A stretch of 64,000 nucleotides of DNA, taken from a virus. Both the position numbers and the translations under genes were made by a program. This document shows positions 1 through 28,293 of the stretch, piece after piece. Location: positions 1-64,000 of the IMG/VR virus record IMGVR_UViG_3300031965_000018; one strand, given 5' to 3'. Under the pieces are notes generated by a model. That model did no database searches. It was not told where the DNA came from and was given only the letters and a program-made list of their open reading frames with translations. Numbering within the stretch: position 1 is the first letter of the stretch; every line of letters starts with the position of its first letter.

Positions 1-383
1 TCGTGGACAATCAACGCCAAAGCTGTCAGTGGCCACACCAGTTGTAAGTCTAGTAACGCACCCGATTCAGAATGGTCTCCATCGACATGCGTCACATCGA
101 ATAGACGCGAGACAGAAGGCAGCTGCTCTTTAGACCGCCCGTCCAGCCACAGAATTGAACCCGTGTAACCAACTCGTAACAACTCTGACTCAACGTATCG
201 ATGATCTCCGCGATTGGTTCCTCCGTGGGGTAACCCCCAAGTGTCGCATAGCGCCAACTTGTTGATAGACCCACTCCGCAACGCCGCTAAGACAGAGTCC
301 CCGTCGCGCACTCCGACCTCAAGATAACTCTTGGCAGCTGTTTGCTCTACCACACTAGCTACAAGTGCTCGATGGGATAACAT
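1..383 (-). CDS. class I SAM-dependent methyltransferase (Methyltransf_24/O-methyltransferase-like), C-terminus cut by window edge
   Basis: Minus frame open from ATG 383..381 to position 1; absent from the ORF track because no stop lies in the window. Translation MLSHRALVASVVEQTAAKSYLEVGVRDGDSVLAALRSG...FDVTHVDGDHSESGALLDL. YLEVGVxxGxS SAM loop and DGDHS motif read by eye. Confidence 0.5.
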   Translation of the reverse strand, partial: MLSHRALVASVVEQTAAKSYLEVGVRDGDSVLAALRSGSINKLALCDTWGLPHGGTNRGDHRYVESELLRVGYTGSILWLDGRSKEQLPSVSRLFDVTHVDGDHSESGALLDLQLVWPLTALALIVH

Positions 384-388
384 AGCTC

Positions 389-1081
389 TCATGACAGCGA
401 CATCTCCCGGCGCCACTTCGGGTGCCACGGGACTCGTCCATCCCCCATATCTACAACGCTAGCCGTTCGATAGACCGCTTCTGGTAATGAGAACGCCGTC
501 ATCCCATTCCGATGCCATTGGCGCGCAATCTGCTCACGCTCGGCTCGGGACTTCACGAGAAACTTGTGATGCTCGATACAGACCGGCGCAGAATCTCCCA
601 TACCGAACGGAGACATCGCATGTAGCGTCGGACGGCCACCCGACATCTCTTTCAAACTCAGTCGAGTCTGATGGTCGGGGAATAGCTGCGACGTCATCAG
701 TGCGCTTGTCTCATCCGGCCACAAGTGCATCCGAGGGAAGTTCCAATGCGGCGATTCGAGATAAGCCTGAGACGCCAGCCAATCGACCATTGCCGGAGAT
801 GCCCGCTCATCGTCATCGAGACGTAGAACGTAACCGTCACGGCAAAACGATACGGCCTCATCAAGCACACTCTCGATGAAACCTTTCGACTCCACTTCCC
901 ATAGGTGAATCGGCTCGTATCCGGTCTCCAAAACCGGAACAGCCACTTGTGAGAATGCGTGCGGGCCATCAGCAACTACTACCAACTCCGCTCGGCACCG
1001 TTCTGCTAACTCCGCAAATGAACGCAGAAACGGGAGCGCATACGGCTGGCCCTGAGTGACGGTAAGAATCGAGAGGCTCAT
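389..1081 (-). CDS. GT-A fold (family 2-like) glycosyltransferase
   Basis: MSLSILTVTQGQPYALPFL opening and a DxD motif (VLRLDDDE), typical of GT2. ATG 1081 overlaps the upstream stop (ATGA coupling). Confidence 0.5.
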   Translation of the reverse strand: MSLSILTVTQGQPYALPFLRSFAELAERCRAELVVVADGPHAFSQVAVPVLETGYEPIHLWEVESKGFIESVLDEAVSFCRDGYVLRLDDDERASPAMVDWLASQAYLESPHWNFPRMHLWPDETSALMTSQLFPDHQTRLSLKEMSGGRPTLHAMSPFGMGDSAPVCIEHHKFLVKSRAEREQIARQWHRNGMTAFSLPEAVYRTASVVDMGDGRVPWHPKWRREMSLS

Positions 1082-1434
1082 CCCAACCACACATCCGTAA
1101 CGAATCCGAGGTCATTGCCAGGATCAACCGGCCCGCCGATCTGGAGAATGGGCCCGGTGCTTCCGTCTGAGAGCGTGAGCTTATCTTTCGTTGAGATAGC
1201 CACGGGCTCCAAGAACGTGATCTGCGCTCGACTCATCGTCAACTCCCCTTCAGGAGTGCGCACTTGCTGCTGGTGGAACGAAACAATCGCTCCACGCTTC
1301 ACGGCAGCCTTATACGTCTGCGCTCCACTCGTGGTCTGCTCTTTCCACGCGGCATGGAGCACCGTTGGCTGCAAGTCCTTTGTAACAGCCTTGGCCGTCT
1401 TGACCGCGCCACGAAGAATATCATCCAGGCCCAT
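1078..1434 (-). CDS. putative head-tail joining / head completion protein
   Basis: 118-aa ORF directly after the connector-like gene in the head module. Called from size and position only. Confidence 0.35.
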   Translation of the reverse strand: MGLDDILRGAVKTAKAVTKDLQPTVLHAAWKEQTTSGAQTYKAAVKRGAIVSFHQQQVRTPEGELTMSRAQITFLEPVAISTKDKLTLSDGSTGPILQIGGPVDPGNDLGFVTDVWLG

Positions 1435-5292: not shown

Positions 5293-5468
5293 TCCAGCTC
5301 CTTCACGCGACGACCAAGGCGGCCGTCTGGATACGTGAGATACTTGCGACCCTTATAGGGACCGTTCTTAATCGTGGTAACCTTGACCTGCCCAATCTGC
5401 GTCGGGTCTTCACCTGCCGCAAGCGCCGCCTCGCGACTTGGATAAACACGCCCGGTTTCCATGTTCAT
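5289..5468 (-). CDS. hypothetical small protein
   Basis: MNMETGRVYPSREAALAAGEDP... ATG 5468 overlaps the MuF stop (ATGA), and its own stop overlaps the next start. Confidence 0.4.
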   Translation of the reverse strand: MNMETGRVYPSREAALAAGEDPTQIGQVKVTTIKNGPYKGRKYLTYPDGRLGRRVKELE

Positions 5469-6034
5469 TGCAACAACCCCACAGTGCATCGGCAGTTCGG
5501 GTGCGCGGGAGGACCGCTAATGCTAAACTCTTCGTTCAGCTTCACCGTCTTCCCTTCCATCGGTGCGCAAATCGGGCAAGGATCGGCCGTGATCCAAACT
5601 TTCTTCTCTTTGCCCGTCAAGTGCCCGGCCTCTTGCGCCTGCTTCCACAGCTGGACTTGCCCTTCATTCGCGGCGGTCATCGTCTCCGTTCGTGCAATGG
5701 CCAAGGCCCGCGAGCGCCTGAGCTTCGCGGCGTATTTCGCTGCGGCCTTATCGGCTGCCGCTTCCGAACTCCCGCGCGCAATCAACTTGGCTCGGTGCTT
5801 CACGACGGCACCGGCGTGCCGCTCGGTGAGGCCAATCGTGTCGTGGATGAGTCGTGCCGTGGCCCGAGGGCCAATGCCCGTCTCGAATCCTTCGACCACG
5901 ACGGCACGAATCGTCGCCCGAGCCTCGGCAGAAATCTGCTGCACGAGACGAGCCGCGTGCTGCTGGGCCCACACCTGCGCCTCAACAGCCGAGGCATCGA
6001 AGCGCATCACAATCTGTCCCCGCCCGCAAGCCAT
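5465..6034 (-). CDS. head morphogenesis protein, SPP1 gp7 / Mu F family
   Basis: Hallmark motifs LAIARTETMTAANEGQ and HPNCRCT near the C-terminus. ATG 6034 shares one nucleotide with the upstream TAA (TAATG). Confidence 0.8.
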   Translation of the reverse strand: MACGRGQIVMRFDASAVEAQVWAQQHAARLVQQISAEARATIRAVVVEGFETGIGPRATARLIHDTIGLTERHAGAVVKHRAKLIARGSSEAAADKAAAKYAAKLRRSRALAIARTETMTAANEGQVQLWKQAQEAGHLTGKEKKVWITADPCPICAPMEGKTVKLNEEFSISGPPAHPNCRCTVGLLQ

Positions 6035-7056
6035 TAGCGCCCCTGAAGTAACGACAGCCATGAATCAGAGTTTCTGATCGTCTTCAAGCGCCCTCGAATC
6101 TGATCCAACTCTGAATTCGACACGCCTGCCCCTCGCAAGTCCTCGAATAACGTCTTGGTATCAATGTCTTTGACCATTTCCTTTGGTTTCAAGAGCCACG
6201 ACGGGCGCGCAATCTCATTAGCTGAGACTTGGTCCTCTAGCTCCGCCATATGTTCGATGAACCCCGCGCGTGCCCGTTGTGCAAATAAAGTGTCATGGTC
6301 GAGTAGCTTGAGGCGACCCGAATCTGTAACAAGCCAATTATTTGCATTACGGTCAGCGTTCCCTAGAAGAAAGTCTAGAGTGGCTGCGCGCTGCTGCCCG
6401 TCTCCAGTACCAAATCGGACCTTGGATACCAAGTCAGCTGCCCGTGTGCCCTCCGCAAGTTCAAACAAAACACCCTTCTGATCATTAATGGTTCGACTCA
6501 CCATCTTAGGAAGTAAGTCGAGGGCTCCCATTTCCTTCGCCACAATCCGTACGGATGTCTCATTCACAAGATTCGAGGCGGGTTTGAAAAACGCTTTTGA
6601 ACCGTCAGCGAACGTAACAACCGAATTTTGTCCAGTAGATGTAACGCTAGCGACTGTCTTCGTTGAGAGCGCCCGATCCTGCGTCGCGCTATTTCCTACG
6701 ACACAAAGCCCTGTCGCATCCGCTCCGGCTGCGAGGGTCGCACCAAAAGCATTAGACAACCCATCCCCGGCTGCAGCCGTGCGCAGCGGAGACTCCAACT
6801 TACGACCCACCAGCTCCACTTCGAGTCGCGCCACGACGTCATCGAGCACAAAGATCGCTGCACCCGGAACACCGAATGCAAGCGCCTGTTCCAACTCATC
6901 AAGCGGCATCGCTGCCTGCGTCTCCGCAATCGCATCGAGGATAATGCGGCGTACGCGTGGGGTCATCCGCTCCGCTGCTCGGGAAATAGGTGTCTCGTTC
7001 CGAGCGAGCCGGACTACGGCCGCAGCGACGACGCGTGGGGAGACGGTGAGCAGCAT
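6034..7056 (-). CDS. head-module protein with C-terminal PI3/PI4-kinase-like (HipA/SCO1664-type) domain
   Basis: FFKPAS...E...LDFLLGNADRNANNWLV...LKLLDHDTLF matches the K / GNxDRxxxN / DHD catalytic-loop pattern of atypical kinases. It sits between portal and MuF and is coupled at both ends. Confidence 0.5.
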   Translation of the reverse strand: MLLTVSPRVVAAAVVRLARNETPISRAAERMTPRVRRIILDAIAETQAAMPLDELEQALAFGVPGAAIFVLDDVVARLEVELVGRKLESPLRTAAAGDGLSNAFGATLAAGADATGLCVVGNSATQDRALSTKTVASVTSTGQNSVVTFADGSKAFFKPASNLVNETSVRIVAKEMGALDLLPKMVSRTINDQKGVLFELAEGTRAADLVSKVRFGTGDGQQRAATLDFLLGNADRNANNWLVTDSGRLKLLDHDTLFAQRARAGFIEHMAELEDQVSANEIARPSWLLKPKEMVKDIDTKTLFEDLRGAGVSNSELDQIRGRLKTIRNSDSWLSLLQGR

Positions 7057-8420
7057 TACTTAACGACCAAGTTCATGACGCCGCCCTTGCGGAGCGCAGC
7101 CGCAAGCTGTTCGATCTGCTCGTCTTCGTCGGGCGCGTCGATGTTATCGGCGTCTAGCTCGGGCAGCGCTTCATAGCCAACCGTCTCGCGTACCTCGTTG
7201 GGCTGGATCACCGTCTGCCCAGGGAAATACGTATTGAGCTTGGCGAGCTTCTCAGCCCGATCAACTTGCTCCGTCTCGGTCATGTCCGTCGTGGGTGGCC
7301 AGTTGACGTTATACGGTGCGGCTGGCTTCGGCAAGTAATTGAACTCAATGAGTCGGTCCACGAACGGACGAACCACATGCTGCTCGGCAAATCCCTGGCG
7401 ACGATCAGCGACTTGCGTATTCCAGTTGTCGCGATCTGTTGACGAAGCCAACTCACCGCGCTCCGAGCCCACCAGCATACGCATTGGAATACCGATAGCG
7501 CCCGCAATCTGCGAGAGGATGGCTTCCGCTGGCCCCTTGAAATCCGCCACCTCAGACCCGAGGGTGTTCACCTCGACGGCACGAGTGCGCATGACGCGGC
7601 GGATGTTATGGGCGTATTCGTCCACCTCATCGCTCAGCGCAGCTTCGTCTTCGGCCGACAAGTCCGCATCCTTATCGACGTTGACATTCAATCCCTGATT
7701 CGCTCGGAGCCAGAACGCTTCAGCCCCGCCACCCGTGACCTTTTCAAGATCGTCCAGTAGATTCCACACACGGTCTAGACGCGGCTGCCCGAACACATCG
7801 TTGTCCGTGATGTTATCCGCCACGTGAATAATGCGCGTCCAGTGCACTGGCTTGGCAAACGAGGACGACGCAACGTCAATACGCTTGAGCGTGTAGAACT
7901 TCGGCCACGCGAATCGCGGGCTCTGGTGGTCGGTCTCCCACTCGTGAACGGCCGCGTCTTCCTCGTTGAAGACGGACAGATACAGTAAGTCTTCGGGCCT
8001 ATTGCCGCGTGGTAATGGCGTGTTCATCTCGCCAGCCGCACCCAAAAGCATGACACCGTATCGGCCTTTTCCAGCCACGATATCGAGGCGCTGGAACATA
8101 TTCCAAATCTTGAGCCGCGCGTCCAAAGCCTGCCACGCGAGTTCCAGTGCCGTATCTACATCAGGACTCTCATCCTCATAGACGTAGCCACCGCCACGCC
8201 ACGTAGCCTTTGGGAAGACCTCAACAACGCGCCCGGCAACCCCGCCACGCATATACCGCTCTCGATAATCGCGTGGGACAAGATTGCGCTCATAGCCAAG
8301 AGCGTTGTACAGATCGCGCTTCCCTAAGAACGTGATACCGGCTTGGTTGAGAAACTGCAGACGTTGGAGCAAGGCGGTGGTCGCTGTGCGTAACGTGCCG
8401 GGTTTCTTCGCGTCAGTCAT
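7056..8420 (-). CDS. portal protein (DUF1073-like)
   Basis: 454-aa ORF directly downstream of the large terminase and upstream of MuF. The N-terminal region (LNQAGITFLGKRDLYNALGY...) resembles DUF1073 portals. Confidence 0.75.
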   Translation of the reverse strand: MTDAKKPGTLRTATTALLQRLQFLNQAGITFLGKRDLYNALGYERNLVPRDYRERYMRGGVAGRVVEVFPKATWRGGGYVYEDESPDVDTALELAWQALDARLKIWNMFQRLDIVAGKGRYGVMLLGAAGEMNTPLPRGNRPEDLLYLSVFNEEDAAVHEWETDHQSPRFAWPKFYTLKRIDVASSSFAKPVHWTRIIHVADNITDNDVFGQPRLDRVWNLLDDLEKVTGGGAEAFWLRANQGLNVNVDKDADLSAEDEAALSDEVDEYAHNIRRVMRTRAVEVNTLGSEVADFKGPAEAILSQIAGAIGIPMRMLVGSERGELASSTDRDNWNTQVADRRQGFAEQHVVRPFVDRLIEFNYLPKPAAPYNVNWPPTTDMTETEQVDRAEKLAKLNTYFPGQTVIQPNEVRETVGYEALPELDADNIDAPDEDEQIEQLAAALRKGGVMNLVVK

Positions 8421-20765: not shown

Positions 20766-21890
20766 ATGAGAATCGCAGTCCTCTATTGGCCCACGACGTC
20801 TGTCGGCGGGATCGCTTCAGACCTTCTCAATTTGCGGTCGTGCGCTCTACGGAAGGGGCATACGTTCGATGTCTATCGGAGCGGTGACCTCTCGACGATT
20901 GAGCCGAGAAAGTTCAGAGAGCGGAAGCTGATTCGTGGCGGTGACAGCTTCATCCATATCGACGGAGAGGCATCGCACGCCAGTCGGCAGGTGCGCTACT
21001 CGGCCGATATGCTCAACCGTAACTACGACATCGTCATCCTGGGTTTCCTCTGCCCACATCCCAAGAAAGAGATACCTGAGCCGCGATTTTTGGAGTTACT
21101 CACGCGGCTGAAGATGCCGATTGTCGGCCGCGTGACAGATGGCTACTTCGATACGTATGCCGAGTGGGGCAAGCAGACACTCGCCCTATGCCAGCGCTCA
21201 ACGGTCGTCGTCCCGTCCTATGCGAAGCCACTGACGGATCGTGAGATCACGAACTTTGAAATCTACCGCGCGCCATTCGACGCCGAGGCATACGGGATCG
21301 ACTTAGAGGCAAAGCGCTCACCGACTGAGCTTACCATCTGGCCCAGCCAGCAGAAGAACATCAAAGGTTGGAACCCATTCCTGGAGATGCTCGCGGAGAT
21401 ACCCGGTGACGTAGAGATTTACAACTGCGGTATCCGCTACTACCAGACGCGCACATCAGACGAGTGGATTCGCGGCATCGGCAAGAATAACTTCCACCCG
21501 GAGTTCGGCGGCCTTGGGCGCCATACGTATTTCGGCTGGCAGACGCTCGACCATATGCGCAGTGAGGTCTACCCGCGAGCGTGGTTCATGGTAGACTTTC
21601 AAGGCATGGGAAAGCCACGCTATGAGGCGTATCGTCTTGGGTCCTACAACCACACGACGGTCGAAGCTCTTTGGTATGGGATGCTGCCGGTTCTGTATCA
21701 TACGTCGATGAACGCGGGATTGCCGCCTGAGGTATTCTTCGCGGTTGAGGAAGCGAGGGACTTCATCACGGACCATGACCGTGCCCTCGAACAATTCCAC
21801 GACGCGACACGACTAGCCCAGGCCCGTCAGTTCGTGCTCGATCACCACTCGGCCGATCATCAATTGGCCTATCTCTTGGGTGATCTGTGA
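20766..21890 (+). CDS. GT-B fold glycosyltransferase (GT1/GT4-like)
   Basis: The MRIAVLYWPTTSVGGIASDL opening and a C-terminal E...EALWYGMLPV block fit GT4-type enzymes. First gene of the coupled operon. Confidence 0.55.
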   Translation: MRIAVLYWPTTSVGGIASDLLNLRSCALRKGHTFDVYRSGDLSTIEPRKFRERKLIRGGDSFIHIDGEASHASRQVRYSADMLNRNYDIVILGFLCPHPKKEIPEPRFLELLTRLKMPIVGRVTDGYFDTYAEWGKQTLALCQRSTVVVPSYAKPLTDREITNFEIYRAPFDAEAYGIDLEAKRSPTELTIWPSQQKNIKGWNPFLEMLAEIPGDVEIYNCGIRYYQTRTSDEWIRGIGKNNFHPEFGGLGRHTYFGWQTLDHMRSEVYPRAWFMVDFQGMGKPRYEAYRLGSYNHTTVEALWYGMLPVLYHTSMNAGLPPEVFFAVEEARDFITDHDRALEQFHDATRLAQARQFVLDHHSADHQLAYLLGDL

Positions 21891-22618
21891 AAGTCTATAT
21901 CCCAACCATTGGTCGAGTGGACCGACAAGTAACGCTTGCAGCGTTGCCAGAGCGATGGAAAGAACGCACATGGCTCATTCAGCAGAATAGTGAGTCTCAT
22001 ACTCACCAGTATTTTTCTTGCCCAGTAACTCGCATTGCCCAGGTTCGTCAGTGGGTGGTAGAAGAAACTGAAGGCGAGAAGCTCTTGATGCTGGACGATG
22101 ATCTTCAGTTCTTTACACGAACAATCGAAGATCCAAGGCTACGTCGGGCGACTCCCGAGGAAGTAGGGATAGCGCTGGATATGCTCGACTCGTGGTTAGA
22201 TGAACGGGCTATGGTTGGGTTTGGCCCGGTCTTTATGAACCAGCAATATCGAGTGCCGTATATTGAATGCGCGAGAGTAGCGCACTCTTTCGGATTCCAG
22301 CGGAGTGTGTTACGTTCTGAAGGCATTCGTTTCACTGACGTCGTCTTTTCCGAAGACTTCCACGTCACGCTCTCTTTACTAGAGCGAGGTTATGCGAACC
22401 GAATAAGTACACTCAATGTAGTCAAACAGGTGAAGGAAGGTGCAAGTGGTGGCATTTCGACTTACGCTACCACAGAAATCCGAGAGGAAGCTAAGCAACA
22501 ATTTGCCGCTCTCCACCCGAAGACCGTTACACTTTACCATCGAGACGTGCCCGATCAATTCGGGATGACTCTTTCGTGTCGAATTGCTTGGAAGCGAGCG
22601 TTTGGAGTTGAACGATGA
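21887..22618 (+). CDS. GT-A-like glycosyltransferase (DxD)
   Basis: MKVYIPTIGRVDR... then LLMLDDDLQFF (DxD). Any relation to base-J/TET-associated DNA glycosyltransferases needs a profile search. Confidence 0.4.
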   Translation: MKVYIPTIGRVDRQVTLAALPERWKERTWLIQQNSESHTHQYFSCPVTRIAQVRQWVVEETEGEKLLMLDDDLQFFTRTIEDPRLRRATPEEVGIALDMLDSWLDERAMVGFGPVFMNQQYRVPYIECARVAHSFGFQRSVLRSEGIRFTDVVFSEDFHVTLSLLERGYANRISTLNVVKQVKEGASGGISTYATTEIREEAKQQFAALHPKTVTLYHRDVPDQFGMTLSCRIAWKRAFGVER

Positions 22619-23298
22619 TCGACCGTGAACTGTTGGTCTTAGCTTGCGGCCGTTCCGGCACGCTCTATACGTCAAAGGTCTTTCGCGCGGCGGGTTTCGA
22701 CCTACGGCACGAGCAGATCGGCGCATTCGGTTCTTCATCCATGTATATGGTACCGAGGGTCACGGATTGCTCCATTGTCAATGCGGGGCAGAAGGTGCCA
22801 ATTCACGCCGGGGAGAATCGAGCCGACTACCGTTTTAAACACGTCTGGCACCAGACGCGCCACCCGCTTCGCGCCATCGACTCCCTCGCAAAGTCATTCA
22901 CTCGGAAGGTTCGCCTTTGGACCGGGGAGCAGATTCGCTTTGCGATGCCTGGCCGCTCCACTGAACTCCAGTGCCCTATCGAGGATAAGATCCACTGGGC
23001 GATGCGCTATTGGTTCTACAACAATGCGTTTTGTGGGGTACAAGCCGAGTGGCGCTACCAGTTGGAGAACTTTCCATGGGGTGAGATGCTGGAGCGACTC
23101 GGGTATCAGTCAGGTCACCCGCTCCCGGTTATCCCAGCGACGACCAACCGCAACCTCCGCTTCGCATTCAAGAGCGCCGAGCAGGCTGCAATGATTCGAG
23201 AGACGATCTACGACACGACGTGGGAGACACTCGAACGAATCAACCCCTATCTAACAGATACGATTCGTAGGATGGCTCGGAGGTATGGCTATGAGTAA
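22615..23298 (+). CDS. sulfotransferase-like protein (P-loop-kinase-related fold)
   Basis: LVLACGRSGTLYTSKVF resembles the 5'-PSB loop and WHQTRHPLRAIDSL resembles the 3'-PB motif. There is no Walker lysine. A kinase cannot be excluded by eye. Confidence 0.4.
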   Translation: MIDRELLVLACGRSGTLYTSKVFRAAGFDLRHEQIGAFGSSSMYMVPRVTDCSIVNAGQKVPIHAGENRADYRFKHVWHQTRHPLRAIDSLAKSFTRKVRLWTGEQIRFAMPGRSTELQCPIEDKIHWAMRYWFYNNAFCGVQAEWRYQLENFPWGEMLERLGYQSGHPLPVIPATTNRNLRFAFKSAEQAAMIRETIYDTTWETLERINPYLTDTIRRMARRYGYE

Positions 23299-23860
23299 GA
23301 TTCTCGCCATCGAGCCGCACGCCGACGATCTGTTCATCTCGGTCGGATGGACACTTGACGCAATGATTAAGGCCGGGCACGAAGTGACGACCTTGACCGT
23401 CTTTGGAGACGAGCGACGACAGAAGGAGGCGCAAGAATACGCGCGACTGCTTGGGGCCGAGCACCGAGCCTTACAACTGCCGGAGTCTGGGTCCATGGAT
23501 GGCGAAGTTGACAAGCGAGCATTACACGACGCCATAGTCGCACTCGATTCTAGCTTTAGCCAGATCTTTGACCAGGTTTGGTGTCCGCTCGGTATCTACC
23601 ACGAAGAGCATAAAGCTGTACGTCGAGCGGTAGACACCTTATTCAAGAATCCGATCTATTACCTCGACATGCCGTATGCGGTGAAAGAGAAGAACCGCAT
23701 CGAGGCAAATGAAGCCATAAGGAAGCGACACGTGATCTCTCTCATCGCACCCACGCCGCGCAAGTGGAAGGGCGCGGAGTTGATCTTCAAGTCACAATCC
23801 GCGTTCTTTCACTTCGAGCGGGATAACCTATTGCGCTGTTGGGAGATGTTGGTGCGATGA
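23291..23860 (+). CDS. PIG-L / LmbE family N-acetylglucosaminyl deacetylase
   Basis: ILAIEPHADDLFISVGWTL, GHEVTTLTVFGD and YHEEHKAV correspond to the family's AHPDD, G-x-x-V and HxDH motifs. SD GGAGG lies 7 nt before ATG 23291. Confidence 0.6.
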   Translation: MSKILAIEPHADDLFISVGWTLDAMIKAGHEVTTLTVFGDERRQKEAQEYARLLGAEHRALQLPESGSMDGEVDKRALHDAIVALDSSFSQIFDQVWCPLGIYHEEHKAVRRAVDTLFKNPIYYLDMPYAVKEKNRIEANEAIRKRHVISLIAPTPRKWKGAELIFKSQSAFFHFERDNLLRCWEMLVR

Positions 23861-24033
23861 TCAACATCTATCTCCGCTGCCCGAGTTGCGCTTACGTCTG
23901 GCACGCCACGTCGGTTGTTGAGGGCGCGTGGTGGGCGCCGAAATACCCGGAGGTTGACGCGAGATTCCAGTGCTACTGCCCGAAGTGTAGTGCCGCGCCG
24001 CCGATGGAACTTGAACGGACGGAGAATCAATGA
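23857..24033 (+). CDS. small zinc-ribbon protein
   Basis: MINIYLRCPSCAYVW...QCYCPKCSA has CxxC...CxxC. ATGA-coupled at both ends. Confidence 0.4.
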   Translation: MINIYLRCPSCAYVWHATSVVEGAWWAPKYPEVDARFQCYCPKCSAAPPMELERTENQ

Positions 24034-24614
24034 CCGTAGCAGACCGCATCGAGAACTACCATGCCGTGACCGGGTTTCCCGAGTCGTTGTTTGCCTCTGG
24101 TGACGGGCGCATCTGCGGCGTGTGGATCATGGGTAATGACTATCGCGTGAAGTCCACGTTCTATGGAGGATACCCGGCCGGTTACTTGCGGCGCGTTCGC
24201 GCTCTATTCCCTGAGAAGCAGGCCGTCTTGCACTTATTCTCGGGTCGAGTGGACACAGAAACGATGCCTGGCAAGACGGTCGATATCAATAGTGACTTGG
24301 CGCCGGACTACGTCGATGACGCGCAGACGCTCACACAAGTGCCTCTTGAAGATTTTGACCTCGTGTTAGCCGATCCTCCCTATTCGGTCGAGGACGCTGA
24401 TCATTATCAAACGACGATGGTGAAACGGAACGTCGTGATGCGCGTTCTCGGGCAACGGTTGCGACCAGGCTCTCACGTAGTTTGGCTCGACCAAGTACTC
24501 CCGATGTATCGCAAGGACAGTCTTAGCTTATACGGCGTCATTGGAATGGTGAAGTCCACGAATCATCGTTTCCGCGTCGTATCGATTTTTGAGCGAATTG
24601 GAGAGACATGTTAA
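24030..24614 (+). CDS. DNA methyltransferase (N6-adenine/N4-cytosine type, DPPY)
   Basis: Motif IV LVLADPPYS and motif I-like VLHLFSG. Compact, 194 aa. Confidence 0.6.
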   Translation: MTVADRIENYHAVTGFPESLFASGDGRICGVWIMGNDYRVKSTFYGGYPAGYLRRVRALFPEKQAVLHLFSGRVDTETMPGKTVDINSDLAPDYVDDAQTLTQVPLEDFDLVLADPPYSVEDADHYQTTMVKRNVVMRVLGQRLRPGSHVVWLDQVLPMYRKDSLSLYGVIGMVKSTNHRFRVVSIFERIGETC

Positions 24615-25582
24615 CCGAAGCACCAGAGTCACTGTTCTGGTATTGGATAAGTGAGAGACATTCCATCTACCTCCGGCGCGCGGCCGGGTTGCCGAAGCCA
24701 TGGACCGACGATCCGATCTTGCAGCAGTACAAGTTCACCAATCCGTTTCGTGAGAACGACCGAGGGACGGTGTGGTTGCGCGAGAACTTTCTGGAGCCGC
24801 ATCGTATACCCGACGAGACGTGGAGCGAGCTTGTTAAGATCGAAACGATGCAGCACGGTCGATTGAGTCACTACTCGAAATCAGAATGGCTATCCTTACT
24901 TGCCTTCAACATCGCATGGTACAGAATGTTCAACTGGTGGGGCACCGGCCGTCTCCTCGGGTGGCAGACCGATTGGGATCCGGCAGCGGTCATCGAGACA
25001 CTGACCCAAGCAAGTCTTCGCGGCGAGCAGGTTTTCACCGGCGCGCATATCGTCTACAGCCCGCCAGGACGGCCGAAGATCGACGCCATCGTGGACGTCT
25101 GCTCGGCACTCTATGATCTAACAGTTACGCAACGAGAGCTAGTCATCGACCCGCCGCACCATCGCTCGTTTGTCGAAGCGTGTCGCGCGTATCGATCCTT
25201 GGAGCGAGCCTTCTATTGGCTTCAATCCGTCTATTGCGTCGGCGGGTTCATGGCTTATGAGATGGTCACCGATATGCGGCATACGCGGCTCCTTGAGGAC
25301 GCGACGGACATCATGACGTGGGCCAATATGGGGCCGGGTGCGAAGCGTGGCTTGACGAGACTTGGACTCCCGGCGCGGAACCAAGATGAGGGGTGCGAGT
25401 CGATGCGTGGCCTCTTATCGAGGGCAAATACACAGCTTCCGGTGAATCATCCGGCAGCTGATTGGCCTACTCCCGAGATGCGCGATATCGAACACAGCCT
25501 GTGTGAATTCGATAAGTATTGCCGCGTGAAGTTCGGAGAAGGCAAGCCACGGTCAATGTACCCTGGGAGGAAGAATGACTAG
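24608..25582 (+). CDS. aGPT-Pplase-like protein (alpha-glutamyl/putrescinyl thymine pyrophosphorylase family)
   Basis: I recognise WYWISERHSIYLRRAAGLPKPWTDDPILQQYKFTNPFRENDRGTVWL as the characteristic N-terminal signature of this thymidine-hypermodification family. Needs HMM confirmation. Confidence 0.5.
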   Translation: MLTEAPESLFWYWISERHSIYLRRAAGLPKPWTDDPILQQYKFTNPFRENDRGTVWLRENFLEPHRIPDETWSELVKIETMQHGRLSHYSKSEWLSLLAFNIAWYRMFNWWGTGRLLGWQTDWDPAAVIETLTQASLRGEQVFTGAHIVYSPPGRPKIDAIVDVCSALYDLTVTQRELVIDPPHHRSFVEACRAYRSLERAFYWLQSVYCVGGFMAYEMVTDMRHTRLLEDATDIMTWANMGPGAKRGLTRLGLPARNQDEGCESMRGLLSRANTQLPVNHPAADWPTPEMRDIEHSLCEFDKYCRVKFGEGKPRSMYPGRKND

Positions 25583-26651
25583 TCGTATTGTCGCCGTTGA
25601 TGTGAGGGATATTCTCCCTAATCCCTATCGTAATCTTGATAAGTATGTTTTAGACGCCACGAAGATCGATGCGCTTAAGCAGAGTTATGAGACTAGTGGC
25701 TTCTGGGATGGGTCAATTCAAGCACGGCCAAGTCCGACGATTCCAGATAAGTATGAGATTGCCTTTGGACATCACCGTATTGAGGCCGCTCGGATCAAAG
25801 GTATCACTCCAGTTGGGCTCGTCGTGTCTCAACGCTCGAATGCCGATATGCTCCGCATGATGGCCCACGAGAACAGCACCGACTTCCGCAACGACATGCG
25901 CCCGACGATTGAAACCATCCGCGCCGTCATCGAGGCATATGGCCGTGGGGAGATTGAGTTGGAGGTAATTACGGGACACGGAGCTAACCAGCAACAATAT
26001 AGTTTACCGAGCGGTAAACATTACTCCCTCGCAACCGTCGCCCGCTTCCTCAATTGGGTAAAAAATAGTGACAACCAGGCCACCACCGCATGCCGCGTGG
26101 CGTTTGATGCCTATCGGGAGGAAGCGGCGTCGGCGGAGGCGATTGAGCAGTTGGGTGGGAAGGAAGCCACTGAGACCGCGATCCTCGCCATTAACACGGC
26201 CATTCGCGCGGCGCGAGTGTCGGCACATGAGAAGGGATTGACTCCCTCACAAACCCGACAAGCTGAAAAAGCGGCAGCAGAAGCAACAGCGAACGCTATA
26301 CATAACTATGGAGCTGCCCGAGGTCGCGGTGAAGCCGTCTCGGCGGGTAAGGCGGCGGTAGATGCTATCGTTGGAAAGAAGAAACCGAAGACGGTGCCGG
26401 TTGAATTCTACATCGCTACCGTCAATAGTAAGAGTCTCGCCTATAACGCCTATGGAGAATTCTTGAAGCAGTGCGACGTGTTGTTACCCGTGTTAGAGCA
26501 CGTCCGACCGGAGGCCAAAGAAGCCCTAGCAGCGGCACTAGAGAGAATGCTTGAGCGCACGACTCAACCCGTATCTGCCCTCATCCGTGCCCTGCGTGCA
26601 GAAGACGTAGAGCAATTAACAAGGTTGCTTTCCAAGGAGACTTCGTCATGA
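25575..26651 (+). CDS. ParB/sulfiredoxin-like N-terminal domain protein
   Basis: ILPNPYRNL and YEIAFGHHRIEAARIKG form a GxxR-type ParB box. The long helical, Ala-rich C-terminus overlaps both neighbouring genes. Confidence 0.6.
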   Translation: MTSRIVAVDVRDILPNPYRNLDKYVLDATKIDALKQSYETSGFWDGSIQARPSPTIPDKYEIAFGHHRIEAARIKGITPVGLVVSQRSNADMLRMMAHENSTDFRNDMRPTIETIRAVIEAYGRGEIELEVITGHGANQQQYSLPSGKHYSLATVARFLNWVKNSDNQATTACRVAFDAYREEAASAEAIEQLGGKEATETAILAINTAIRAARVSAHEKGLTPSQTRQAEKAAAEATANAIHNYGAARGRGEAVSAGKAAVDAIVGKKKPKTVPVEFYIATVNSKSLAYNAYGEFLKQCDVLLPVLEHVRPEAKEALAAALERMLERTTQPVSALIRALRAEDVEQLTRLLSKETSS

Positions 26652-27283
26652 GAGAATCTATGCGATCGATTGGTGATATTGCTCAGAGAACCAGAGAGAC
26701 ACGAGATATCATCGATTACCCCGACGGTACTATTGCGTGGGGGGAGCTTACTCGTGTAGGTACATACTACTTCCGTACTACGAAAGGTCGAGACAGACTT
26801 TTGCTCCCGCTCGATGACCATAACCCGTGGCGCGACCGTGGAGATCAAGGCCATCGGGTTTCCAATATAGACTTAGCTGTCTTGATTGTAAACTCTCACC
26901 GAAAGTCAGACCACCTGAGTTACGAGGAAGATTTGCGAGTCGTTAAAAAGGTATTACATGACGCTTATAAATCGGTGATTGAAGTCGTTACTAACCTAGG
27001 AAATACCGTCATTGCCGTAGATGCTGAAGGTATGGCGTTAGGAGTCGAGGGCAATACTAACCCACAAGCAGGATTTGACCTAGCAGATTCTCCTGCGGGA
27101 CGGGCGCTTAAAATGCAAAAGATTGCCTCACTCGGAGGATCAGCGAAACGTGTGAATCGCGACATCGAAAGTCTGCGTGCACCAGAACCAAAGCTAGACG
27201 AACTCTATGGGGTAAATCAACTCGTATCGGGGGCAGCAGCTCAAGTATTGTACAACGAGAACAGATATGAGGATGACTTGTGA
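26648..27283 (+). CDS. hypothetical protein within modification operon
   Basis: 211-aa track ORF, ATGA/GTGA-coupled. No motif recognised. Confidence 0.5.
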   Translation: MRESMRSIGDIAQRTRETRDIIDYPDGTIAWGELTRVGTYYFRTTKGRDRLLLPLDDHNPWRDRGDQGHRVSNIDLAVLIVNSHRKSDHLSYEEDLRVVKKVLHDAYKSVIEVVTNLGNTVIAVDAEGMALGVEGNTNPQAGFDLADSPAGRALKMQKIASLGGSAKRVNRDIESLRAPEPKLDELYGVNQLVSGAAAQVLYNENRYEDDL

Positions 27284-28293
27284 TCACCCTCCGCGTCCGC
27301 AACGTCCACGAGGCACTCCCCGTCGCCATCGAGTTACTCCATCGCATCGGCATCCGGCGCGAGTCTCGCAACGGGCCAGTTCTCCAGTCGCCCGAGCCGG
27401 TCGCCACGGTATATGAGCATCCGACTGAGCGCGTCATCTTCTGGCCCGAGCGGGATGCGAATCCATTCTTGCATTTGTACGAGAGCCTGTGGATGCTCGC
27501 CGGGCATAATGACCTCGCACCATTGCTCCGGTATACAAAACGGTTCGCAGAGTTTTCCGACGACGGCGAGACGCTGCACGGAGCGTATGGGTATCGGTGG
27601 CGGAACCATTTTCGTATCCAGGCAGTGAAGAGCGAGTACCATAAGACGGACCAACTCTCCGTCATAGCCGAGCAGCTCAAAGCGAATCCCGAGGATCGCC
27701 GGTGCGTTCTGGGCATGTGGGACCCGGAAGCCGATCTTGGCCGCCAGGGCAAGGATCTGCCCTGTAACGACACCGCCACGTTCCAGATCGGCCCAGACGG
27801 GCGTTTGAACATGGTCGTCTTCTGCCGCTCCAACGACATCGTCTGGGGTGCCTACGGCGCGAATGCCGTCCACTTCAGCTATCTCCTCGAATACATGGCC
27901 GCGTGGATCGGCGTCCCGGTCGGCACGTATACGCAGGTCAGCGTCAACTGGCACGCGTATCTAAAGACGCTAGAGCCGGTGCGGAAGTTGAATCTGGCGT
28001 ATGGTGACCCGTATGGAAGTGGGCGCGTCCTCTCGCACTCGTTACCGTCAGCTGCTTTCGCCGGAGGTATCGAGGTCATCGACCGTGACATCTCCGAGAT
28101 TTTGCGGCAAGCTGATAGCGGTGAATGGAATGAGTGGACGGTGAAACTCAGCTGGTCCGCAAGCGTGATCTACATTCTTCATATGCACCATAACTGGAAA
28201 ACCAGAGGGCGTGCCTGGACTCTCAAATACGCCATACCCGTCGATGATTGGTCACTAGCCGCTATCGAGTGGCTGGAACGGAGGAAGGCGTGA
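27280..28293 (+). CDS. thymidylate synthase (ThyA) family enzyme, candidate deoxypyrimidylate hydroxymethylase
   Basis: ESLWMLAGHNDL, HGAYGYRWRNHF, DQLSVIAEQLKANPEDRRCVLGMWDP, catalytic DLPCN, FCRSNDIVWGAYGAN and NWHAY. There is about 70 aa of extra C-terminal sequence. Confidence 0.8.
   Translation: MITLRVRNVHEALPVAIELLHRIGIRRESRNGPVLQSPEPVATVYEHPTERVIFWPERDANPFLHLYESLWMLAGHNDLAPLLRYTKRFAEFSDDGETLHGAYGYRWRNHFRIQAVKSEYHKTDQLSVIAEQLKANPEDRRCVLGMWDPEADLGRQGKDLPCNDTATFQIGPDGRLNMVVFCRSNDIVWGAYGANAVHFSYLLEYMAAWIGVPVGTYTQVSVNWHAYLKTLEPVRKLNLAYGDPYGSGRVLSHSLPSAAFAGGIEVIDRDISEILRQADSGEWNEWTVKLSWSASVIYILHMHHNWKTRGRAWTLKYAIPVDDWSLAAIEWLERRKA

Follow-up and report, generated by a model that had tools for sequence, protein, structure and literature searches.

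A PI3K/PI4K-like kinase domain on the N-terminal domain of a split MuF head protein in an uncultured phage

The subject of this analysis is a 340 amino acid (aa) open reading frame (ORF), here called ORF340, within 64,000 nt of viral DNA from IMG/VR (record IMGVR_UViG_3300031965_000018, positions 1–64,000; 'the window' is this whole stretch). ORF340 runs from ATG to TAA at window positions 6034–7056 on the minus strand, with the genes for a portal protein and a MuF core on either side. A PI3K/PI4K-like kinase fold of residues ~125–340 is well supported, and residues 1–120 are homologous to the N-terminal domain of MuF proteins in which that domain and the core form a single chain. With modest confidence, ORF340 is judged to be a minor head protein, a MuF N-domain carrying a kinase, which would be packaged into the capsid, ejected with the DNA and act on a target in the host.

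Kinase domain of ORF340

The location of the 340 aa ORF between portal and MuF genes, with TAATG at both ends, was proposed in an initial annotation made from the sequence alone and is read directly from the DNA. The portal protein gene (7056..8420, minus strand, 454 aa) matches Pfam Phage_portal_3 (E 2.2e-29) and phrog_146 (E 2e-60), and its TAA (7058–7056) overlaps the ATG of ORF340 (7056–7054) by 1 base. Likewise, the TAA of ORF340 (6036–6034) overlaps by 1 base the ATG (6034–6032) of the MuF core, an ORF of its own (5465..6034, minus strand, 189 aa) that matches Phage_Mu_F (E 3.8e-14), phrog_3517 'head morphogenesis' (E 1e-31) and TIGR01641 'phageSPP1_gp7'. These overlaps suggest that ORF340 is translationally coupled at both ends. 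The identical gene is present in two independent metagenome assemblies, independent gene callers agree on all three genes, and the gene order TerL–portal–ORF340–MuF core–...–major capsid protein is found in the window and in two assemblies; related loci are syntenic with it.

The kinase domain spans residues 125–340 (6037..6684, minus strand). Taken alone, ORF340 matches Pfam PI3_PI4_kinase (PF00454) below threshold (E 3.3e-5; 24.3 bits, cut-off 27.1) and over residues 226–261 only. A single-sequence search of the PDB gives noise, e.g. citrate synthase at E 0.2, and a word-indexed homology search with ORF340 returns only ORF340 itself. Relatives came to light only in an exhaustive phmmer search against 1.8 billion cluster representatives, which yields 318, 35 of them at E<=1e-10. 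Residues ~125–340 correspond to a single domain of ~215–230 aa in about 130 proteins among the matches listed, nearly always at the C-terminus, and 65 of the 66 homologues scanned match PF00454 at E<=1e-3 (best E 6.8e-54). Membership of ORF340 in PF00454 rests on such transitive evidence and on structure, because ORF340 alone falls under the threshold. The profile of a 30-sequence family alignment (A2) matches the Fam20C-like kinase 4kqa (3e-6), PI4K-II alpha (PI4K2A; 8e-6) and PI4K-II beta (PI4K2B; 2e-5) in the PDB, with Fam20C, PI3K-alpha, Vps34 and PI4KA among the further matches.

The three motifs on which the initial annotation was built, AFFKPAS, LDFLLGNADRNANNWLV and LLDHDTLF, are all present and are not chance resemblances, as motif residues lie in invariant columns of the family. 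AFFKPAS (residues 155–161; 6574..6594, minus strand) contains the ATP-anchoring Lys158 (K34 of A2, invariant in 30/30), and Glu166 of helix C (6559–6561, minus strand; E42 of A2) is invariant in 30/30 as well. The catalytic loop LDFLLGNADRNANNWLV (residues 227–243; 6328..6378, minus strand) holds D228, D235, R236, N240 and W241, corresponding to A2 columns D104, D111, R112, N116 and W117, all invariant. LLDHDTLF (residues 251–258; 6283..6306, minus strand) holds the metal-binding Asp253 (D129 of A2, invariant). With A173 added, the invariant columns in ORF340 numbering are K158, E166, A173, D228, D235, R236, N240, W241 and D253. Among these are the residues typical of protein-kinase-like enzymes, namely the Lys that anchors ATP, the Glu of helix C, the Asp and Asn of the catalytic loop and the Asp that binds metal. 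The earlier reading of LLDHDTLF as a DxD motif is not sustained: Asp253 alone fits better, as the equivalent of the DFG Asp, and position 255 is mostly Gly across the family (consensus LIDHGLxFP).

The AlphaFold2 (AF2) model of the kinase domain has a mean predicted local distance difference test score (pLDDT) of 93.2 and a predicted template modelling score (pTM) of 0.88. Its best Foldseek match in the PDB is Vps34 (5dfz_C; E 8e-7, TM score 0.58), followed by PI3K alpha, beta, delta and C2alpha (TM scores 0.50–0.56), with PI4K-III beta also matched, all at probability 1.00, and other protein-kinase-like enzymes lower. The model has the two lobes of a kinase, an N-lobe with a beta-sheet and helix C and a helical C-lobe, and the AF2 model of full-length ORF340 agrees on the kinase fold. 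Profile and structure searches thus both give PI3K/PI4K-like matches, and the kinase fold put forward in the initial annotation is borne out. The ORF340 subclade (P0001–P0004), with 38–42 % mutual identity over the full length, retains all invariant catalytic residues in 4/4 members; for this reason the subclade, and with it the ORF340 kinase domain, is predicted to be catalytically active. A PADLOC scan returned nothing significant.

Among the 66 scanned proteins the kinase domain is fused to Phage_Mu_F (5), portal (3) and XkdF-type prohead protease (Peptidase_S78_2; 1) domains. Other partners are Zeta toxin, ADP-ribosyltransferase (ART), 2H phosphoesterase (2_5_RNA_ligase2/LigT/Acb1-like), InPase, AAA_33 and CTP_transf_like, the same set as in the 'polyvalent proteins' described by Iyer et al. 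(PMC5512222). P0024, P0086 and the IMG/VR locus L123 encode a MuF core followed by the kinase, the canonical order of MuF effectors. The analogy to MuF-borne effectors drawn in the initial annotation therefore holds, as the same kinase domain is found C-terminally on MuF, portal and polyvalent proteins elsewhere.

Structural matches in BFVD include proteins of haloarchaeal tailed viruses and uncultured tailed phages under the names 'PI3K/PI4K catalytic domain-containing', 'portal' and 'head morphogenesis', and in one case NUDIX; the kinase domain is already annotated automatically in databases. A tblastn comparison of ORF340 and of a central family member with 50,697 cultured phage records returned nothing beyond the catalytic loop of a Myxococcus phage Mx1 'kinase' and a weak match in pMLP1. 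The Mx1 protein is 54 % identical to ORF340 over 37 aa at the catalytic loop. It is 619 aa long (L003, OR576727.2, 28851–30710), adjoins a 1480 aa 'NUDIX hydrolase' protein and makes Mx1 the sole cultured phage with a copy detectable by BLAST. No PI3K/PI4K-like kinase cargo was found in PMC3482391, PMC5576092 or PMC5512222 or in full-text literature searches; depending on the paper, it is the terms 'PI3K'/'phosphatidylinositol' or the term 'kinase' that have 0 occurrences in these three. Zeta-toxin kinases and a truncated Ser/Thr/Tyr kinase are described there instead.

Split MuF and exchangeable modules

The N-terminal part of ORF340 (residues 1–120; 6697..7056, minus strand), referred to as the N-domain, is all-helical, with five helices in the AF2 prediction. 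Among the matches listed, 13 proteins align with it independently of the kinase part, over residues ~3–140 only, and have unrelated C-terminal parts. The gene for one relative, P0122 (307 aa), lies directly after the portal gene in a locus syntenic with the window. Residues 22–119 of P0122 align to ORF340 residues 23–115 (E 5e-12), and its residues 127–305 are 53 % identical to the window MuF core (E 2e-58). Because P0122 joins N-domain and core in one chain after the portal, the N-terminal domain of ORF340 is identified as the N-terminal domain of MuF.

Close homologues of the MuF core (>=47 % identity) fall into two length classes, ~178–201 aa without an N-domain and ~299–323 aa with N-domain plus core. 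About 25 are split cores; about 14 besides P0122 are unsplit (299–323 aa) and match the hidden Markov model (HMM) of the N-domain at E 1e-26 to 1e-42. PHROG MuF profiles cover the window MuF ORF only from profile position ~90–120 onward. The window core matches phrog_3517 at positions 93–325, and the N-domain of P0089 gives a weak match to positions 12–139 of the same profile. ORF340 itself has no PF04233 match in the Pfam scan, the PF04233 core being the next ORF, and a word-indexed profile search with the N-domain returned P0041 only.

The MuF gene of this phage is thus split, with the N-domain and a kinase on one polypeptide and the core on the next. ORF340 is accordingly not the free-standing effector upstream of a 'complete' MuF that the initial annotation described, since residues 1–120 are the MuF N-domain and the downstream ORF is the core only. 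Joining of kinase and core by frameshifting was considered and rejected, as the genes for N-domain protein and core are separated by other ORFs at L009, L015 and L016 and as the start of the core, M[AST]CG, is conserved as a start. An apparent fusion of portal, N-domain and core in L099 was dismissed as an artefact, a long stop-free frame in GC-rich DNA.

In relatives the N-domain carries not only the kinase but also ART and at least seven other unrelated C-terminal modules. ART is found on the N-domain in P0009, P0124 and a 421 aa protein of L015, with Pfam ADPrib_exo_Tox matches down to E 1.5e-21. One module is common to P0046, P0066, P0136 and L016 and is nuclease-like as judged by eye only. 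At least six further modules have no Pfam or PHROG name; GNAT-like, HExxH and PD-(D/E)xK-like labels can be given to unnamed modules on motifs judged by eye only. The junction after the N-domain is conserved, GAxAxE[LVF]-C-[VIA][VLT], and the variable module starts beyond it. Wherever flanking DNA suffices, the order is N-domain plus module and then MuF core, i.e. in the window, L006 (P0041), L012 (P0002, a kinase orthologue), L009/L010 and L015 (ART cassettes) and L016. The four kinase-bearing N-domains are not mutually nearest relatives, and split and unsplit cores interleave by identity, one split core sharing 82 % identity with an unsplit core. Repeated exchange of modules and of split states follows from this, and the N-domain is the constant carrier of a polymorphic effector system.

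A conserved small acidic ORF of ~70 aa with the motif F.Q.IEDIEI.SR follows the ART cassettes (L009, 1439–1651; L015, 3402–3623), and an acidic ORF of 100 aa follows the nuclease-like cassette (L016, 4702–5004). These small ORFs are candidate immunity or inhibitor genes. No candidate immunity ORF was found downstream of the kinase cassettes of the window and L012, where the start of the core overlaps the end of the kinase ORF. Additional genes are inserted at some loci. L015 has five extra small genes between cassette and MuF core, one for a PAS-like membrane protein, and three to ten extra small genes lie between the portal gene and the N-domain gene in L012 (1053–6029) and L006 (5046–5997). 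Given the latter insertions, the portal–MuF interval is a second hot spot for accessory genes.

Each side of the split is marked by a cysteine. A Cys directly follows the N-domain in every N-domain-plus-module protein examined (15–16). In ORF340 this is Cys118 (6700–6702), within the junction motif ATGLCVVGN of the linker (residues 115–124; 6685..6714, minus strand), where pLDDT is <50 at residues 115–122. The separately encoded MuF cores with a complete N-terminus (~25) all begin M[AST]-C-G-P-G...MAFD; the window core starts MACGRGQIVMRFD (MACGRG), with Cys3 at 6026–6028. The pair is also present at L006, L009, L012, L015 and L016, and a junction Cys is found in 0 of ~15 unsplit MuFs, in which the positions of Cys118 and core Cys3 are contiguous. 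Each chain end that the split creates thus has one conserved Cys, despite the interleaving of split and unsplit forms.

A bolder and rather unlikely interpretation is that the split MuF is a plug-in cargo loader. The N-domain would accept any enzyme, the two chains would be re-joined at the Cys pair (by a disulfide, a shared metal site or other thiol chemistry), and the portal-bound core would load the cargo and let it go when the DNA is ejected. On this view the kinase belongs to an uncharacterised family of capsid-delivered PI3K/PI4K-like effectors directed at a host defence or signalling target. Taken by itself, a re-tethering of the two chains through a disulfide or shared metal site is an appealing possibility; the cysteines might otherwise mark a processing site or belong to a junction segment that moves along with the cassettes. 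An intein or HINT element was rejected, given the stop and start codons between the parts, the lack of a terminal His-Asn and the unrelated folds of the modules.

Proposed role and alternative explanations

The case for a packaged kinase draws on SPP1 gp7, a MuF family member that enters the procapsid through portal binding, in few copies, and aids the onset of infection (PMC6316719). Toxins fused to gp7-like proteins are thought to exploit this packaging route (PMC6316719, PMC5576092), and MuF is a known carrier of effector and toxin domains (PMC5576092, PMC5512222, PMC3482391). On the SPP1 gp7 precedent, the N-domain of ORF340 would keep its place in the MuF/portal assembly and bring the kinase into the capsid. 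The N-domain would still dock on the MuF core/portal assembly, so that the procapsid would receive the kinase in a few copies, and the kinase would leave the capsid together with the DNA. Early in infection it would phosphorylate a target in the host, which may be a protein, lipid, nucleotide or cell-wall precursor, in the service of takeover or counter-defence.

Several points weigh against a capsid-delivered kinase. Packaging and activity are predictions from genes and models, in a phage that is uncultured and known from metagenome assemblies. Canonical MuF cargo is C-terminal to the core, whereas here the cargo hangs on the N-domain alone; capsid targeting by the N-domain by itself is supposition, and the portal-binding region of SPP1 gp7 is not established in the literature consulted. 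ORF340 on its own scores under the Pfam gathering threshold. Additionally, the subclade P0001–P0004 lacks both the Gly-rich LGGG loop and an insert of ~17 residues after the Lys, and it has DRN where most of the family has DRH, differences that could alter activity. They would also suit a pseudokinase with a purely structural or binding role. This is highly improbable, as none of the invariant catalytic residues has been lost from any of the four subclade members, which are ~40 % identical, and as PI4K-II, by profile alignment, is likewise without the His of DRH. The nature of the substrate is a separate matter from delivery. Whether delivered or expressed, the enzyme might act on a small molecule or lipid (a signalling nucleotide, an NAD-derived messenger, a cell-wall precursor or a membrane lipid) and so blunt host defence. 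By sequence and structure the nearest solved relatives are lipid and atypical kinases (PI4K-II, PI3K/Vps34, the xylosylkinase Fam20B and aminoglycoside phosphotransferase), the fusion partners of homologues are nucleotide or RNA-end enzymes, and a NUDIX gene adjoins the Mx1 kinase and names one BFVD match. However, Fam20C and many other fold matches are protein kinases, and the sequence fixes no substrate-binding feature. A small-molecule or lipid substrate is regarded as unlikely, if worth keeping in mind.

The gene lies between portal and MuF and overlaps both, and the N-domain would put the enzyme beside head proteins; both facts would also be expected if the kinase acted in the producing cell or procapsid and not in the next host, phosphorylating head proteins (portal, MuF core, scaffold/protease or capsid) for assembly or maturation. 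But the slot is polymorphic in sister phages, which have ART, nuclease-like or other modules, and is empty in unsplit MuFs. As close relatives hold unrelated enzymes or nothing in the slot, no essential assembly step needs a kinase. The domain is also found in polyvalent proteins beside conflict domains (Zeta toxin, ART, 2H/Acb1-like, InPase), and a role in assembly is considered improbable. Similarly low is the probability that ORF340 is a MuF polymorphic toxin sensu Jamet et al. 2017, i.e. a growth-inhibiting kinase used in bacterial competition, with the producer protected by an immunity protein. Such a toxin would be consistent with the constant N-terminal part, the motif conserved at the junction and the C-terminal modules that differ between relatives, and also with the immunity-like ORFs after the ART and nuclease-like cassettes and the prophage-like relatives in Acidobacteriota chromosomes. 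The kinase cassettes, however, have no such partner ORF, for which reason a toxin/immunity reading fits the kinase less and suits the ART cassettes better; instead, the core start overlaps the kinase stop in the window, with the same tight pairing in L012. Furthermore, the Pfam MuF domain is on a different polypeptide, and the genome has its own DNA polymerase, primase and DNA-modification genes.

The remaining observations concern the phage and its genome. The nearest reference-genome relatives of the MuF core (46 % identity) are at two sites (L018, L019) in a 5.76-Mb contig (CBDFKD010000002.1) of an Acidobacteriota metagenome-assembled genome, with Vicinamibacterales next; these matches hint at prophage relatives and at the host phylum. 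In the C-terminal part of the MuF core (5465–5700) the motif CPxC...HPNCRC is conserved, and a MafB19-like deaminase match below threshold (E 3.5e-4; 20.9 bits, cut-off 27) probably reflects a shared zinc-binding motif. The capsid and head-completion genes are followed directly downstream by several methyltransferase genes and a gene for a glycosyltransferase (window 1–1100 and on past the left edge; L001, 16600–21023). This position is unusual, and the enzymes could modify virion proteins.

A thymidine-hypermodification-like cluster occupies window positions 21887–28293 on the plus strand. It contains genes for a TET-associated glycosyltransferase (21887–22618), a PIG-L deacetylase (23285–23860), a 5-hmdU DNA kinase helical domain (24608–25582; E 5.5e-48), a ParB_N-like protein (25575–26651) and a thymidylate-synthase homologue (27280–28293), all on the plus strand. 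The phage DNA is probably hypermodified and possibly glycosylated. A link between ORF340 and the 5-hmdU DNA kinase was rejected, the latter being an unrelated P-loop kinase.

Significance and comparison with known systems

Effectors delivered from the capsid act before any phage gene is expressed and thus open the phage's contest with host defences. That MuF proteins carry cargo is an accepted idea, though experimental tests cover only a handful of cargos. The compact PI3K/PI4K-like kinase found repeatedly on MuF, portal and polyvalent proteins constitutes an uncharacterised effector family. If the ~120-residue N-domain suffices for packaging, it would be a minimal capsid-targeting tag and part of a natural cargo-swapping system, and such a tag could help in engineering protein-delivering phages.

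Within the kinase superfamily, the ORF340 domain shares with PI3K/PI4K and Fam20 kinases the bilobal fold, the FK(P) Lys, the helix-C Glu, the GNxDRxxxNW loop and the (I/L)D(H/F/N)G Asp. It differs from PI3K/PI4K in being minimal (~215 aa), without helical (PIK) or C2 accessory domains, and in having DRN and not DRH; nothing points to phosphoinositide specificity. The initial annotation called the domain HipA/SCO1664-type. This is correct at the level of the broad kinase superfamily, with a similar catalytic-loop motif, but not beyond it. TIGR03843 (SCO1664) scores E 0.023 and 14 bits against a cut-off of 172.4, the Pfam scan of ORF340 gives no HipA model match, and HipA_2 is matched in only 6/66 relatives. 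The likeness is a superfamily resemblance and not membership. HipA systems also have a HipB-type partner, whereas ORF340 has none and is flanked by portal and MuF genes.

The gene for SPP1 gp7, like the MuF locus of the window, follows the portal gene, and the window core matches the gp7 family TIGR01641. SPP1 gp7 is a single chain without enzymatic cargo and has been studied experimentally, whereas the present protein is known from sequence. ORF340 itself has partial homology to bona fide MuF proteins and a portal-adjacent position, with the core on a different chain.

T4 Alt and internal proteins are examples of enzymes that are loaded into the head and enter the host along with the DNA, and the T7 gp0.7 kinase modifies host proteins early (PMC5512222). 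These are functional analogues of ORF340 and bear no sequence relationship to it. T4 internal proteins have a short capsid-targeting sequence that is cleaved by the prohead protease, and T7 gp0.7 is not packaged but made after entry.

The closest parallel is with the MuF-fused effectors and polymorphic toxins (PMC3482391, PMC5576092, PMC5512222), which likewise combine a head-morphogenesis carrier encoded beside the portal with swapped C-terminal enzymes. In both systems the cargo is proposed to be packaged and injected, ART occurs as cargo and some cassettes have small candidate immunity ORFs. Of the features of a Jamet-type MuF toxin, ORF340 has the constant N-terminus and variable C-terminus and lacks the MuF domain in the same chain and the downstream immunity gene. 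The published effectors have core and cargo in one chain, with the cargo on the C-terminal side, whereas in the present system the cargo is on the N-domain only, the core is a separate downstream ORF and a conserved Cys is found at each new chain end. MuF-borne effectors are thus the known theme; what is new is a recurrent, previously undescribed PI3K/PI4K-like kinase cargo and a split carrier with a Cys pair.

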